From assembly GCA_011065165.1 (NCBI GenBank), contig JAAKFF010000047.1:1-12398 (forward strand): 12,398 nucleotides of DNA. Reading direction: 5' to 3'. This document shows positions 3,374 through 11,302 of this stretch, in pieces. This stretch comes from Chlamydiota bacterium (lineage in GTDB: Bacteria > Chlamydiota > Chlamydiia > Chlamydiales > Simkaniaceae). A program made the translations under genes and the position numbers. The notes under the pieces are model-generated. The model saw nothing but the letters and a program-made list of their open reading frames with translations, ran no database searches and was not told the DNA's origin. Every line of letters starts with the position of its first letter. Position 1 is the stretch's first letter.

Positions 3374-3390
3374 TGTGCCTCAAATGTGCC
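3374..3390. promoter_or_regulatory. TGTGCC-N5-TGTGCC direct repeat upstream of the integrase promoter. It is a candidate integrase arm-type site or operator.
   Basis: 'tgtgcctcaaatgtgcc'. It has the same half-site and 11-bp register as the sites at 1373-1389 and 9258-9274, in the opposite orientation. It lies about 75 bp upstream of the -35. Confidence 0.35.
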
Positions 3391-3517: not shown

Positions 3518-4585
3518 ATGGCCAATATACAAGAACGCAAATCGAAAGACGGAAAAACTACCTATAGAGTCCAGATTAGGCTAAAGGGATATCCTTCTCA
3601 AACAGCAACCTTTTCAAGAAAGACTGATGCAAGGAAGTGGGTGCAGCAGATTGAGAGCGCGATTCGAGAAGGACGTCATTTCAAAACAGCCGAGTCCAAA
3701 AAACATACCCTTGGGGACCTTATTGATAGGTACATTAAAACAGTAGTACCTGGAAAAAAGCAGTATGGAGTCACTCAAACAGCCCAACTTCTCTGGTGGA
3801 AGCAAGAGCTTGGGTCTTTTCTCTTGTCTGACATCACTCCAGCACTTATTGCGGAGAAAAGAGACAAACTTCTTCAGGGTTTCACCTATCGTAAGACTAA
3901 GAGGTCTCCATCGACTGTTGTTAGATACTTGGCGGCACTTTCGCATGCTTTTAGCGTGGCTGTTAGAGAATGGGGATGGATTGAAGATTCGCCGGTGAGA
4001 AAAGTCTCGAAGCCTTCGGAGCCTAGAGGACGAGTAAGATTTTTGAGCAGTGATGAGAGAGAAAGACTCTTAGATGTTTGTAAACAGAGTGCTCATCCTT
4101 ATTTGTTCACAGTTGTGGTTTTAGCAATTTCCTCTGGGATGCGTTACTCAGAAATTATGAAACTTACTTGGTCGGATGTCGATTTTGCTAAAAAGCGCAT
4201 CACGTTACATGAAACGAAGAATGGGGAAAGAAGGGTTGTCCCTGTTACAGGTTTTGCTTATGAGCTACTCAAAAAGCATGAAAAGAGTCGACGCATGGAT
4301 ACCTTGCTGCTATTTCCAGCACAAAAGGGACAAAACCCACAAAAGCCTGCTGTTTTGCGTTCTGCTTGGAATCGAGCGCTGGAGCAAGCAAATATTTATA
4401 ACTTTAGATTTCATGACCTAAGACATTCTTGTGCGAGTTATTTAGCAATGAATGGAGCTTCCATTGCAGAGATAGCTGAAGTTCTTGGCCACAAAACACT
4501 TCAAATGGTAAAACGGTATGCGCATCTTTCTGAAGCACATACCGCTTCGGTTATTGAAAGCATGAATAAGAAAATTTTTGGATGA
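3518..4585 (+). CDS. int: Tyrosine site-specific recombinase / P4-type phage integrase.
   Basis: The C-terminal catalytic signature 'HDLRHSCASYLAMNG...LGHKTLQMVKRYAHL' gives the R..HxxR..Y tyrosine recombinase motifs. The N-terminus 'KDGKTTYRVQIRLKG...FSRKTDARKW' resembles the P4-integrase arm-binding domain. The start is moved to the ATG at 3518 (MANIQ...) because ATG 3485 lies within the promoter -10. Confidence 0.9.
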   Translation: MANIQERKSKDGKTTYRVQIRLKGYPSQTATFSRKTDARKWVQQIESAIREGRHFKTAESKKHTLGDLIDRYIKTVVPGKKQYGVTQTAQLLWWKQELGSFLLSDITPALIAEKRDKLLQGFTYRKTKRSPSTVVRYLAALSHAFSVAVREWGWIEDSPVRKVSKPSEPRGRVRFLSSDERERLLDVCKQSAHPYLFTVVVLAISSGMRYSEIMKLTWSDVDFAKKRITLHETKNGERRVVPVTGFAYELLKKHEKSRRMDTLLLFPAQKGQNPQKPAVLRSAWNRALEQANIYNFRFHDLRHSCASYLAMNGASIAEIAEVLGHKTLQMVKRYAHLSEAHTASVIESMNKKIFG

Positions 4586-5429: not shown

Positions 5430-5660
5430 ATGGAAATAGTACAAAAAAACAAAACTGGACGGCTTTTGTCTGTAGCCCAGTTTGCAATAGAACACCCTGC
5501 TTTTAGCCAGCCAGCTTTGAGGCATCTAATATTTGATGCTGAAGCTAATGGCTTTTGGAAGGTAGTTAGGCGTATCGGAAAGAGAAAAATTTTGCTGGAT
5601 GAGCAAGCTTTTTTCGATTGGGTTAACGAGCAGAATAAAGGAGGTCAAAATGAGTCCTAG
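5430..5660 (+). CDS. AlpA/excisionase-family helix-turn-helix DNA-binding protein. It is a putative regulator or recombination directionality factor.
   Basis: The 76-aa product has 'LLSVAQFAIEHPAFSQPALRHLIFDAEANGFWKVVRRIGKRKILLDEQAFFDWV'. This fits the Xis/AlpA MerR-like wing-HTH pattern (..LS..e.a...gvs..t.yrl...g.fP..ik.G.r.rw...e...Wl). An SD 'gagg' lies 9 nt upstream. Confidence 0.55.
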   Translation: MEIVQKNKTGRLLSVAQFAIEHPAFSQPALRHLIFDAEANGFWKVVRRIGKRKILLDEQAFFDWVNEQNKGGQNES

Positions 5661-7451: not shown

Positions 7452-7520
7452 GGGTATGGATGAGGTTTTGTGGCTTTTGTCCCTTTTGTTCTAAATATCA
7501 ACCAAAATCGAGAAGATAAT

Positions 7521-8508: not shown

Positions 8509-9003
8509 ATGCATAGACAGTCAAAGAAAATAGTCGTTCTAATCCTATCTGCATGTCTTCTTGTGTTGGCTGGCTGCTCTACTCAATATGGTTCAGAAGG
8601 ATTTATTGGAGGGGGATTTTCGGAAACGCTAATGGCTGCTGATACCTATATTGTTACCTTCAAAGGGAATGGGTTCACTTCATATGAGAAGGCAATCAAA
8701 TATGCTCTCAGAAGAGCTTCTGAGCTGACCCTTGAAAATGGGTACAAATACTTCTCCATTAACTCTTCAATGGACCATTCGAAACAGGTGGCTTACTCAA
8801 ATGCTTCCGCGAATTCTTCCGGTCAGATTGATGTTTATAGGTGCTATAACTCGGTTCTAGGCCAATATAAAGGTTCAGGCTCAAGAAGTTCCTACTCGGG
8901 AATTATTACCAAACCACGAGTCAGCATAGGAATTAAGTGTTATCGAGAGAAGCCAAAAGATATAGAAGTCATTGACGCTAGGTTTTTCTTAGCAAGTAAC
9001 TAA
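8509..9003 (+). CDS. Putative lipoprotein.
   Basis: The N-terminus 'MHRQSKKIVVLILSACLLVLAGCSTQ' has a basic n-region, a hydrophobic core and an LAGC lipobox. It has its own AT-rich upstream region. Confidence 0.55.
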   Translation: MHRQSKKIVVLILSACLLVLAGCSTQYGSEGFIGGGFSETLMAADTYIVTFKGNGFTSYEKAIKYALRRASELTLENGYKYFSINSSMDHSKQVAYSNASANSSGQIDVYRCYNSVLGQYKGSGSRSSYSGIITKPRVSIGIKCYREKPKDIEVIDARFFLASN

Positions 9004-9257: not shown

Positions 9258-9274
9258 GGCACACTCATGGCACA
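9258..9274. promoter_or_regulatory. GGCACA-N5-GGCACA, a candidate arm-type site near attR.
   Basis: 'ggcacactcatggcaca' is identical to 1373-1389. It lies about 117 bp inside the island from attR. It is embedded in the inverted repeat CACTCA-N11-TGAGTG. Confidence 0.4.
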
Positions 9275-9390
9275 TTTCTGAGTGAAAACCAAGGAAACAT
9301 TGCGAATATTTAGGATAAATTTTAGTTCTTAAGTTTTTGGTTGTTATTTCTTTGAATATCATTAGCTATCATGAGTTGTCCTCAAGAAAA

Positions 9391-9447
9391 GACTGTAAAT
9401 CCATCGACTTCGGTCTCCGCCAGTTCGAGTCTGGCTGCCCCCATTTC
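9391..9447 (+). repeat. attR: an orphan copy of the tRNA-Tyr 3' half (anticodon loop to 3' end plus 4 nt), followed by a T-tract.
   Basis: It is a 57/57 identity with 1259-1315. No 5' half of the tRNA is present. It is followed by 'gttttttt'. Confidence 0.85.
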
Positions 9448-9493
9448 GTTTTTTTAGGTGTTTGGTGCTCTCTTTTTAGTGTCTTTGTCCTAG

Positions 9494-9601
9494 CCCTCCT
9501 CGCCAAGCTCATTCAAGCTTGCCGTCGTCGCGTTAGAACAAATCCATCAAAAAATAGATGCCCCAAACACCCAAAAAAACTCATGGGGGCAGCCGCTGCC
9601 C
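9494..9601. repeat. Copy 1 of an imperfect direct repeat of roughly 100 bp. It ends in a GC hairpin and a T-tract.
   Basis: 'cctcgccaagctcattcaagcttgccgtcgtcgcgttagaaca...acacccaaaaaaactcatgggggcagccgctgccc'. The core matches copy 2 at 9744-9835 with few mismatches. It has the terminal palindrome GGGCAGC-C-GCTGCCC. Confidence 0.6.
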
Positions 9602-9612
9602 TTTCTTTGTTT
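9587..9612 (+). terminator. Rho-independent terminator-like hairpin.
   Basis: Perfect 7-bp GC-rich stem 'gggcagc c gctgccc' followed by 'tttctttgttt'. Similar structures occur at 9703-9718 (gggagc tgtc gctccc) and at 9961-9987 (gggagc agcc gctccc, then 'ctattggttttt'). Confidence 0.4.
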
Positions 9613-9743
9613 ATGGTGGGTTTTTTTAGAGGAGTTTGAGAAGTAGTTAGAGGAGCTGTTAGAGGGGTTGTTAATTCTTCGTTAAAAAGCCAATATCTTC
9701 TTGGGAGCTGTCGCTCCCATTGAAGATTTTGGCTTTCTATCCT

Positions 9744-9835
9744 AAGGCTCCTCGCCAAGCTTATCCAAGCTTGCCGTCGTCGCGGTAGGATAAAGCTGAA
9801 CACCCACTACCTCATGGGGGACTGCCGCTATCTAC
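9744..9835. repeat. Copy 2 of the imperfect direct repeat of roughly 100 bp.
   Basis: 'ggctcctcgccaagcttatccaagcttgccgtcgtcgcggtaggataa...acacccactacctcatgggggactgccgctatc'. Confidence 0.6.
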
Positions 9836-10029
9836 CATCAAGATCACTCTAGACGACGCTACGCTCCTTATTAAGGACTGAGTTATATGAGTCAAATAAA
9901 TAATGAGTTCTGTGCTATATGACTCATTTTGACTCAGATGAGTGATAGATAAACCCTCATGGGAGCAGCCGCTCCCCTATTGGTTTTTAAGGGCGTTTTG
10001 TCTATTATTTTGAAGGAAGAGGGAGGATT

Positions 10030-10539
10030 ATGATTCAAATTATTTATTATACTCCAGTTTATGTCTGGCCTCTATTTGCCTATCTGCTTTGGATAGGGTG
10101 GAGAGCCAGGAGAAGCTATGTCGCTTCTTGGAAAACGCTTCTAATTATGCCCACCATTTTGTTTGTCTGGTCAATTTATAGGGCTTTCTCGCATTTTGAG
10201 GTCGTCTCGATCTCTTTATGGGCGGTCAGCATAACTATCGGGATAGTGCTGGGAGCTTTGACCACTCGCAGGCTCGATCTGAGGTTTGACAAGCGACGAA
10301 GAGTGGTTGAAATTGCTGGCAATTGGACTCCGCTACTTCTGTCGCTTTCGATCTTCTCTTTGCGCTACTTTCTTGGAGCAACGTATGTGCTGCATCCTGA
10401 GCTTGCAGGAAGTGCTATCCTCATGGGAGTAGAGTGCATTGCTACTGTTATCTCTGGCACGTTTACAGGCAGGCTTATTGGCTATTGGCAACGAGCTAAA
10501 GAATCTCCGCATTGCGATCTTGCTGAAGCGAATGGTTGA
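10030..10539 (+). CDS. Multi-pass membrane protein, hypothetical.
   Basis: The 169-aa product has a strong SD 'gagggagg' 6 nt upstream. It has at least 4 hydrophobic helices, for example LFAYLLWIGW and LWAVSITIGIVLGALT. Composition is notably more GC-rich than the island. Confidence 0.6.
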   Translation: MIQIIYYTPVYVWPLFAYLLWIGWRARRSYVASWKTLLIMPTILFVWSIYRAFSHFEVVSISLWAVSITIGIVLGALTTRRLDLRFDKRRRVVEIAGNWTPLLLSLSIFSLRYFLGATYVLHPELAGSAILMGVECIATVISGTFTGRLIGYWQRAKESPHCDLAEANG

Positions 10540-10540
10540 T

Positions 10541-11302
10541 CTATTTAGATGCGTTTAGGGTTATGAACCAACCCCAATCATCTGGAAAAAATCTGTGTAT
10601 GAATTTGGGGATCTTATCTGTATCATATTTTGTTAGAAGGGGTGTGGCTTCAACTGTACTGAATTGGCGGAATAGATTATTTAATTCAGAGAGTGAATAC
10701 GCTTTGGTGCCTATACTTTCAACGTGATTCCAAATCACATCTCTAGCGCTACGCCAAGGTTTGCCAGCGAGTAAACTGTGCTTTATCCAGAGTTTGATCA
10801 CTCTTAATGAGCGGCGACCGTACATCATCCCAATAAAGAGCCCACTCTTTTTTAACACCCGATGTATTTCACTGATGATGAGTTCGGGATTTTGCGAGTG
10901 GTGGATTACCCCCCAGGAGTAGACTACATCGAAGGTGTTATCGTCATAGGGAAGCTGCTCTGCATCAATTCGTTTCAACTCAGATGATAAGTTGTGCATC
11001 TCAAGACGTTTTTTTGTGGTCAAAATTGCTGCATCGGTCAGATCGACTCCAAAACATTCTGCTCCTGCGCGAGCCCACTGTAGATGATCGGTACCCGCGC
11101 CCACGCCGACCTCTAAGATTTTCTTGCCATGATGGCGAGTAAATTGGGCAGAGGAGTGAATATAGGGTTCTATCTCATACCGATGTCTTTCAACCTTATC
11201 GAAATATTCGAATGAATATTCTTCAGTAGGACCGGTAATAGTTTGTGAGGTGCCACATGGCTCTTTTTCCCAATAGGAGCGAACCCTCTTATTTAAATCC
11301 AT
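10541..11302 (-). CDS. Class I SAM-dependent methyltransferase.
   Basis: Motif I 'ILEVGVGAGTD' is present. Post-I is acidic (FGVDLTD). Motif II-like 'FDVVYSWGVIHH' and motif III 'LKKSGLF' are also present. Its start abuts the SPFH gene stop (11302/11303). Confidence 0.75.
   Translation of the reverse strand: MDLNKRVRSYWEKEPCGTSQTITGPTEEYSFEYFDKVERHRYEIEPYIHSSAQFTRHHGKKILEVGVGAGTDHLQWARAGAECFGVDLTDAAILTTKKRLEMHNLSSELKRIDAEQLPYDDNTFDVVYSWGVIHHSQNPELIISEIHRVLKKSGLFIGMMYGRRSLRVIKLWIKHSLLAGKPWRSARDVIWNHVESIGTKAYSLSELNNLFRQFSTVEATPLLTKYDTDKIPKFIHRFFPDDWGWFITLNASK

Follow-up and report, generated by a model that had tools for sequence, protein, structure and literature searches.

A palindromic repeat array at an island attachment site in Chlamydiota, apparently built from the 3' end of tRNA-Tyr

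In Escherichia coli tyrTV, a 178-bp unit is repeated 3.1 times from the 3' end of tRNA-Tyr (an arrangement that we re-verified in strain K-12), each unit carrying the last 19 nt of the tRNA in direct orientation and the array containing the RttR RNA and tpr. These tyrT repeats have been known for decades and, to our knowledge, are still unexplained. Here we describe what may be a second, structurally different case in which the 3' end of a tRNA gene has given rise to a repeat array, located at positions 9448-10029 of a 12,398-nt stretch of a Chlamydiota bacterium of the Simkaniaceae (contig JAAKFF010000047.1, hereafter the window), which lies on the 45.6-kb metagenomic scaffold ENA ERZ23486238, BAEC19-1_SAMN10404973 scaffold_2359. 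Like the E. coli repeats, which we regard as its closest analogue, this array starts at a tRNA 3' end and its units carry terminal bases of the tRNA. The units of E. coli, and those of a related island locus that we call L067, are simple direct tandem repeats that are 95-98% alike, whereas the units of the window are palindromic, carry tRNA-end copies of alternating orientation and are approximately 70-80% alike. If this derivation holds, palindromic forms exist among tRNA-seeded arrays and have persisted in two environmental chlamydiae beside a hotspot of island integration. The L067 array itself (10222-10751, 179 bp x 3.0, 98% identity) starts at the 3' end of the tRNA-Leu copy in the right attachment site (attR) of its island, and its unit contains, besides a tRNA-end hairpin (TCCGAGCAAAAAA with TTTTTTGATCGGA) and two other GC hairpins, a T-arm copy in degenerate form; an open reading frame (ORF) of 53 aa is called in every unit, and the whole is strikingly like the E. 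coli tyrT repeats.

Other described repeats share part of this architecture. Clusters formed by repetitive extragenic palindromes (REPs), by their hairpin-forming doublets (REPINs) and by bacterial interspersed mosaic elements (BIMEs) are also extragenic imperfect palindromes that lie in adjacent opposite orientations, fold into larger hairpins and are found downstream of genes, often in terminator-like form (PMC3116915, PMC3733652). These families comprise tens to hundreds of dispersed copies with a GTAG or CGTC tag and, for those of GTAG type, a REP-associated tyrosine transposase (RAYT), whereas the known copies of the window array all lie at one tRNA locus, with no proper tag and no RAYT seen. 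The tag is unpaired and sits at one end of a palindrome of 20-40 bp, and families of CGTC type combine stems of 8-9 bp, opened by A/T pairs, with loops of 4-5 nt and a CCA tail. Palindromic miniature inverted-repeat transposable elements (MITEs) such as ERIC, Correia/NEMIS and RUP resemble the units of the window in their size of about 100-160 bp and in being imperfect palindromes over their whole length, but have target-site duplications and many dispersed copies, neither of which was found here, where the unit ends are host tRNA sequence. Tandem arrays of integrative islands, for their part, occupy the same position directly distal to the attR of a tRNA-integrated island; their attachment (att) copies are long, direct and inclusive of the exchange region, whereas the pieces in the window are short, half of them inverted, and lack that region. 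Lastly, template switching at quasi-palindromes copies one arm onto the other and can give direct-inverted-direct arrangements (PMC7202029, PMC8604942, PMC3907307). Most of the documented bacterial cases are point-like or short-patch mutations, and most of the eukaryotic ones large duplications; a product with arms of approximately 70 nt fixed beside a tRNA gene is what we infer here, not an observed event.

Our analysis indicates that the gene-free stretch of the window is composed of hairpin-forming repeats copied in both directions from the last bases of tRNA-Tyr and its trailer. The reading that we prefer, and to which we would give even chances, is that palindromic units made from the tRNA-Tyr 3' end and trailer form a local array with no dispersal, which would have originated by template switching and duplication and which would present terminator-like hairpins. 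At this locus tRNA-Thr (1147-1219) is followed by tRNA-Tyr (1229-1312) and then by an 8.2-kb island, the ends of which form a perfect 57-bp direct repeat (1259-1315 and, as the core of attR on the forward strand, 9391-9447) comprising the 3' half of tRNA-Tyr plus 3-4 nt; the island products include a tyrosine integrase, a DUF3987 primase-like protein and an MqsA/Panacea pair. The repeat region corresponds to the 580 bp between attR and the gene of a DUF6622 membrane protein with its start codon at 10030. That this region has no credible ORF, as an original prediction made from the bare sequence had stated, was borne out by the gene caller, which gave none between 9200 and 10000 of the source contig; two mechanical ORFs in the repeat region have no Pfam match above threshold.

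The same prediction had overlooked the organizing principle of the region, namely that the palindrome of unit 1 reaches 12 nt into the tRNA-Tyr copy of attR. Unit 1 (9433-9594, no strand assigned), an imperfect palindrome of 162 nt, matches its own inverse over 166 aligned nt at 73% (blastn E 3e-21) and folds as RNA with -81.9 kcal/mol (z -6.8), the last 12-15 nt of the attR core constituting its outer left end. Its left arm (9433-9501) starts inside attR with GGCTGCCCCCAT, the last 12 nt of tRNA-Tyr, and is followed by a centre hairpin (9502-9523, GCCAAGCTCATTCAAGCTTGCC) and by the right arm (9524-9594), which ends in ATGGGGGCAGCC, the exact reverse complement of the terminal 12-mer of the tRNA. 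The two arms are complementary at 54 of 71 positions (z 9), and a separate pairwise comparison of half-units gave a z of 14.8.

Three GC-rich palindromes had been reported in the region and are indeed present (9585-9601, 9703-9718 and 9961-9976); each of them is a head-to-head joint at which two copies of the tRNA end, one inverted and one direct, meet. Joint palindrome 1 (GGGGGCAGCCGCTGCCC at 9585-9601), which extends over 9585-9613 of the forward strand as GGGGGCAGC-C-GCTGCCC followed by TTTCTTTGTTT and preceded by AAAAAAA, is the meeting point of the inverted copy that closes unit 1 with a degenerate direct copy of tRNA end and trailer (9595-9632, forward strand; GCTGCCC--TTTC ... GTTTTTTTAG, to be compared with 9434-9457). 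Joint palindrome 2 (GGGAGC-TGTC-GCTCCC, 9703-9718, GGGAGCTGTCGCTCCC) forms the tip of a 51-nt hairpin (9686-9736, AAAGCCAA...TTTGGCTTT; z 7.4, with a self-inverse match at E 2e-7 for 9683-9739), the 3' arm of which also serves as the outer left arm of unit 2. The latter (9701-9826, profile E 1e-23) is shorter than unit 1, has its centre at 9754-9775 (GCCAAGCTTATCCAAGCTTGCC) and ends its right arm with CTCATGGGGGACTGCC. Joint palindrome 3 (GGGAGCAGCCGCTCCC, 9961-9976) belongs to a partial unit 3 (9951-10004, forward strand, blastn E 6e-5), where it stands between inverted CTCATGGGAGCAGCC and the direct tRNA-end and trailer sequence GCTCCCCTATTGGTTTTTAAGGGCG; this partial unit ends 25 nt before the DUF6622 start codon, its joint hairpin lying about 53-54 nt upstream. 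Inverted copies of the tRNA end are found at 9583, 9814 and 9959 and degenerate direct ones at 9595, 9707 and 9970, and all further copies of its 11-mer in the window (with at most one mismatch) are in this region. The recurring sequence CTCATGGGGGCAGCC is the inverted tRNA-end copy plus the first trailer bases, and is followed by a degenerate direct copy of the tRNA end and by the T run of the trailer; the T run after each joint is accordingly inherited from the trailer.

The two copies of roughly 100 bp that had been described in the region proved real, since 9475-9542 and 9727-9794 are 79% identical over 68 ungapped nt (blastn E 8e-12), and a profile of the unit extends them to 9425-9594 and 9701-9826. 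When eight half-units were compared in one orientation, the right arms of units 1 and 2 matched with z 13.1 and their left arms with z 6.6, while the arms of unit 2 gave z 5.0 and cross pairs 3-4; fragment 9970-10029 matched the reverse-complemented right arm of unit 1 (z 7.3) and its left arm (z 4.2). Because like arms match better than cross arms, the unit was palindromic already when it was duplicated in tandem.

A homologous array occurs in a relative. Scanning the JGI metagenomes with the 3' 21-mer of this tRNA-Tyr retrieved four contigs (L060, L061, L062 and L063), and two of them, L060 and L062, carry tRNA-Thr and tRNA-Tyr with no island and no palindromic unit. Contig L061 (SDBV01011444.1) has tRNA-Tyr and four more copies of its 3' half (at 1734, 6927, 8652 and 11159), which represent stacked islands and remnants. 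One of its att copies, ending in the window-type sequence CTGGCTGCCCCCA, precedes the same architecture as in the window, with the tRNA end followed by an arm of approximately 70 nt, the centre GGCAAGCTTATCAGCTTGCC, the other arm, GATTGGGGGCAGC, GTA and CTGCCCCCA, the last of which opens a second unit with the centre GACAAGCTAATCTTAGCTTGCC; degenerate sequence of an island left arm comes after this second unit. The L061 array folds into a hairpin of 160 nt; the stretch of 351 nt that includes it has a fold z of -5.9. In L063, the first of two att copies is followed by an island left end and the second, before the end of the contig, by sequence resembling an L061 arm.

The four units, two in the window and two in L061, have in common a tRNA-like end, a centre and a palindromic layout. 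Their centre has the form CAAGCT-N4-6-AGCTTGCC, in which the hairpin stem is invariant in all four units and the loop varies between 4 and 6 nt; by our own count, the centres of window unit 1 and L061 unit 2 are identical at 27 of 37 bases. In each organism, the arms of a unit are complementary to each other (54/71 and 50/72, z 8-9; z 5.7-9 over the units compared). Between the organisms, the left arms taken without the 12-mer match no better than shuffled sequences (z 0.7), and the right arms retain a residual similarity (56% identical, z 4.4). Such pairing within units combined with divergence between organisms is as expected if arm pairs are copied or homogenized locally. In L061, the inverted copy follows the local trailer bases, CCCCCAATC pairing with GATTGGGGG and, at the att copy at 11159, CCCCCAAAAC with GTTTTGGGGG. 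These comparisons draw on two or three comparator loci. The palindromic unit is absent after the terminal att copy of L064, L073 and L075; the contigs of the closest integrases (85% and 79% identical) end at the att site and offer no distal flank, L158 starts inside its island, and the IMG/VR loci obtained from the integrase alignment are at most 64% identical and trimmed, none of them having an att pair. Homologues of the DUF6622 protein (about 60% identical at best) are not syntenic and provide no orthologous intergenic region to compare.

Two further copies in L061 deserve description. On its reverse strand, the copy at 11159-11260 has a different T arm (GGTTGAGTACCAACC) and is followed by a classic terminator (GGCCCCACATTGTGGGGC, then TTTTGTTTT), which is nested within the pairing of the tRNA end CGCCCCCAAAAC with GTTTTGGGGGCG. 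The copy at 8652-8704 of the same strand has a hybrid T arm, with a 5' half, GTTGG, that agrees with the tRNA copies of resident and island, and a 3' half, CTGGC, of the window type. This hybrid suggests that strand exchange, or a later conversion, took place in or near the T loop and not at the anticodon-loop start of the 57-bp block of identity.

How the array could have arisen may be outlined as follows. The ancestral trailer would have held a short natural palindrome, CAAGCT..AGCTTG (the centre being built on AAGCTT), and the tRNA end a second quasi-palindrome, GGCTGCC (reverse complement GGCAGCC). Copying that folded back or switched template at these two points, a process that is established for short palindromes (PMC7202029, PMC8604942, PMC3907307), would have generated an inverted copy of the trailer reaching 10-12 nt into the tRNA, namely unit 1, after which copying would have resumed in the direct sense to leave the direct-inverted-direct order. 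The entire palindromic unit would then have been duplicated in tandem and its copies would have decayed with distance, a sequence of events that would produce alternating direct and inverted tRNA-end copies with the GC palindromes as their head-to-head joints. Homogenization of the arms by the same kind of copying, which together with template switching at quasi-palindromes is an established mechanism (PMC7202029, PMC8604942), would keep the arms complementary while the organisms diverge. Originally the array would have separated the tRNA operon from the DUF6622 gene, and it would now lie between the island and that gene.

Because each joint combines a GC stem with the T run that follows it, the array offers several terminator-shaped hairpins, and its most probable effect today would be to stop transcription or to insulate its neighbours in both directions. 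Two of the hairpins have the form of intrinsic terminators in a consensus scan (9585-9603 followed by TCTTTGTTTA and 9961-9976 followed by CTATTGGTTT), the first also having the shape of a two-way terminator, with an A run before it and a T run after it; CTCATGG precedes and T-rich runs follow the palindromes at 9585 and 9961, as had been pointed out. Of the earlier suggestion of a terminator or small-RNA array, the terminator part is supported by the form of these two hairpins; Rfam gave no match in 9300-10100 at E <= 1, the window passing the threshold for two tRNAs only. No promoter-like site on the forward strand of the repeat region exceeded the cut-off of the tool. Between the last terminator-like hairpin and the DUF6622 start, we read a weak promoter-like TTGGTT-17-TATTAT at 9980-10008, which with 8/12 matches falls below that cut-off.

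Searches for dispersed copies point to a local oddity, since the array looks unlike a genome-wide mobile repeat. The unit profile together with the centre motif CAAGCT-N2-8-AGCTTG found only the four units described above in 1.71 Mb of loci, where approximately 0.7 matches of the centre motif would be expected by chance (our own arithmetic). Neither the 20.5 kb of source contig searched (including 8 kb beyond the window) nor the 11.5 kb of L061 contains a unit at a place other than tRNA-Tyr, and a REP-like density of copies in the source genome is unlikely. Among species-representative genomes, the 19-mer common to both units returned 53 matches, all in high-GC genomes and judged to be due to chance, as they span only 19-25 nt (one of them being 90% identical over 30 nt). 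A 23-base centre pattern gave no match in the JGI metagenomes, although it is too strict for centres of the L061 type; IMG/VR gave none with either the tRNA 3' end or the joint palindrome, and a BLAST search of the region against phages and plasmids gave no match.

Several observations weigh against the array being a neutral product of template switching with terminator-like hairpins. The count of terminator-like structures, 2, is not above that of shuffled sequences (1.1 +/- 1.3). The array is missing from the island-free L060 and L062, which have an identical tRNA-Tyr end, and is therefore not needed for expression of the tRNA. The arms are saturated with changes, yet the organisms show 73% conservation in the centre with its asymmetric flanks (CTCCTYG ... 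CGTCG), a contrast that hints at a sequence-specific constraint or at recent common descent, neither of them predicted by a purely neutral origin. The same 10-12-nt end point in two organisms needs either an ancient event with maintained pairing or a recurrent hotspot. Finally, the search of the source metagenome-assembled genome spans 20.5 kb of contig, so that a dispersed family of low copy number is still compatible with the data.

This last point bears on the idea, contained in the original prediction, of a REP- or MITE-like element, here a small non-autonomous one that would specifically target its own ends or the 3' end of tRNA-Tyr and so accumulate there. In the manner of ERIC, Correia and REPIN-type elements, the units are full palindromes of 120-160 nt with conserved ends and centre, they are clustered in alternating orientation like REPs (PMC3733652, PMC3116915), and units 1 and 2 are inverted doublets folding into a longer hairpin. 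Moreover, the L061 units lie between an att core and degenerate island-arm sequence as if they had been inserted, and arms that differ between genomes would be expected of separately evolving populations of an element. We nevertheless consider such an element rather improbable, since the dispersal on which the idea depends was not supported by the searches: there is no copy off tRNA-Tyr in any of the loci and no match in the species-representative genomes, JGI metagenomes or IMG/VR. Terminal inverted repeats are present but consist of the tRNA end itself. The units show no target-site duplication, the flanks of unit 1 (GAGTCT and GCTGCC) being inverted and not direct, and no transposase or RAYT is among the called genes of the 20.5-kb locus. 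As for tags, GTAG is absent, the joint palindromes carry none, and the CCTC found 5' and the CGTC found 2 nt 3' of the stem of the centre hairpin in three of the four units are misplaced with respect to described families; the centre stem starts with G/C instead of A/T pairs and has no CCA tail. Decayed remnants of earlier integrations at the same tRNA, that is old attR or attL ends, had also been proposed. In favour of such remnants, tRNA-Tyr 3'-end sequence does occur in the repeats, with the degenerate direct copies at 9595, 9707 and 9970, and tandem stacking of islands is documented in relatives by five tRNA-Tyr 3' copies in L061, two in L063 and three in L075, as well as by the degenerate left-arm sequence behind the second L061 unit. 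True att copies of this island family are, however, 41-57 nt long in all relatives, always direct and inclusive of the part from anticodon to T loop, whereas the pieces in the window comprise the 10-12 terminal nt, about half of them (three) inverted, with neither T-loop nor anticodon sequence; a tyrosine integrase acting on an asymmetric core cannot yield inverted copies. In 9448-10029 there is neither of the island-end motifs (CTCTATGAAAA of the left end and GGCACA-N5-GGCACA), and no further att copy follows in 10 kb rightward. An origin of the pieces as ordinary decayed att ends is not supported by these features, and we hold it to be a poor prospect. Those who call island and prophage boundaries may take from this that a resemblance to the tRNA end beyond attR need not mark an old att site. 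A resemblance of the unit centre to the left-end sequence CTCTATGAAAA in a MAFFT alignment, about 43% by our own count, was rejected as noise.

Of the alternatives to the local array, the one that we take most seriously, while still regarding it as unlikely, is a structured element under selection, in which a long hairpin pairs the tRNA-Tyr 3' end with its downstream complement. At the RNA level, such a hairpin could function in 3' processing, be cut by RNase III, terminate the transcript of tRNA-Thr and tRNA-Tyr or sequester the acceptor strand in an antisense-like manner; at the DNA level, it could be a cruciform or a set of half-sites to which the island integrase binds. Two organisms whose arm sequences are unrelated have both retained arm pairing, changes in the trailer bases are matched by the inverted copy at three different att/tRNA ends, and the invariant centre stem of all four units, with its loop of 4-6 nt, argues in the same direction; when the transcript as it was before insertion is reconstructed, the hairpin prevails over the cloverleaf in the fold (-98.7 kcal/mol overall). 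The duplicated tRNA segment would also be the right-hand core-type region if exchange occurs in the T loop, as the hybrid arm of L061 suggests. Yet units 1 and 2 differ by one compensatory and four disruptive changes in 20 pairs, too few to decide, and mismatches of transition type are unbiased between strands, judged by eye on the arm alignment. The element is lacking in the island-free loci and after the terminal att copies mentioned above, the array today stands 8 kb from the functional tRNA gene, and the joint palindromes, which lack both the T stem and a 6-8-bp overlap, cannot serve as complete core sites of a tyrosine recombinase. RNAalifold on the four units recovered the invariant centre hairpin only, a result limited to the centre because the arms cannot be aligned by sequence. 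A bolder variant, which strikes us as a distant prospect, is that the units are an undescribed site-specific palindromic element tied to the tRNA-Tyr attachment site of a widespread family of islands with an integrase and DUF3987, acting either as miniature hairpins that home to tRNA ends or as a landing pad, decoy or excision modulator made of integrase half-sites, with the centre hairpin GNCAAGCT-loop-AGCTTGCC recognized by a protein. Were this so, it would constitute an accessory layer of integration at tRNA sites that is so far not known. We find it very improbable that the region encodes small RNA or peptide genes after the fashion of E. coli rttR/tpr, either as ORFs of 18-24 aa opening at the ATG of CTCATGG or as a 49-aa ORF on the reverse strand. 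The E. coli tyrT repeats do yield the RttR RNA and the annotated Tpr peptide, and our reading of copies 1 and 3 finds that the CTCATGG ATG opens short hydrophobic ORFs; against this, no Shine-Dalgarno sequence precedes these ATGs, the ORFs are not conserved across units 1, 2 and 3 and L061, the gene caller gave none in the region, and the Rfam and forward-strand promoter searches were negative as reported above. The very basic 49-aa ORF (MSLARRARTKTLKREHQTPKKTKW...) has its ATG at 9516 in the unit 1 centre, extends to about 9370 across the tRNA copy of attR and recalls E. coli tpr, but neither unit 2 nor L061 conserves it and the gene caller did not report it.

Three exact copies of TTAGAGGRG, as previously indicated, are found at 9626, 9647 and 9659 (9626-9667 on the forward strand, with spacings of 21 and 12) in the decayed stretch between units, and no other exact copy occurs in the window. 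A weak inverted fragment of the unit centre (GACGACGCTACGCT vs AGCTTGCCGTCGTC, 79% of 14 nt) lies at 9852-9865 on the reverse strand. The cluster of TGASTCA heptamers comprises three exact members (9888, 9920 and 9930) and not the four that had been counted; it is contained in a 60-nt hairpin or inverted repeat (9878-9937, no strand assigned), which is unrelated to the tRNA-derived units and is accompanied by a 26-nt direct repeat (9869-9894 and 9901-9926). The cluster was considered as an operator of the DUF6622 gene and dismissed, as it is not conserved upstream of DUF6622 homologues, and a 13-mer common to 9921-9933 and 5644-5656 is at chance level for the size of the window.

The sequence CTCATGG, which occurs eight times in the window (1.4 expected; three occurrences via duplication of the unit and two via an 18-mer repeat), had been linked to the arm-type integrase site. 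This link did not survive comparison, since the inner heptamer of the 18-mer varies in relatives (CTCACGG, CTTATGG, CTAGTGG and GGTGGTG) and the motif conserved there is GGCACA-N5-GGCACA; the occurrence of CTCATGG in the arm-type site is fortuitous. The conserved motif defines putative arm-type integrase sites at 1373-1389 and 9258-9274, both on the forward strand and direct, one near each island end, and a third, inverted one (GGCACATTTGAGGCACA) at 3374-3390 on the reverse strand upstream of int. In relatives it is conserved at the left ends of the islands.

The island itself looks like a satellite-like island of broad host range. Its integrase belongs to a very large and unusually conserved family (7961 matches at E < 1e-40) and is 65-85% identical to proteins whose sources are named as Chlamydiae, Verrucomicrobiota, Nitrosomonas and Nitrosospira. 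In the island relatives that we fetched (L064-L076 and L158), the order int, small ORFs, DUF3987 is constant and the target is either tRNA-Tyr or tRNA-Leu(taa). In L073, the attR copy of tRNA-Tyr (17161-17222) sits inside, and on the opposite strand of, a split gene of a large serine recombinase (17105-18373), represented by ORFs with the Recombinase and Zn_ribbon_recom domains. Elsewhere in the window, the stretch from 576 to 690, which lies after the upstream gene and before tRNA-Thr, weakly matches the Rfam model of group II intron D1-D4-7 (27.2 bits, E 0.019; the gathering score is 34). The longest inverted repeat of the window, 27 nt and 93% complementary (AGCACAAAAGGGACAAAACCCACAAAA), has one arm in the integrase gene (4318-4344) and the other (7466-7492) at the start of the ORF at 7470.

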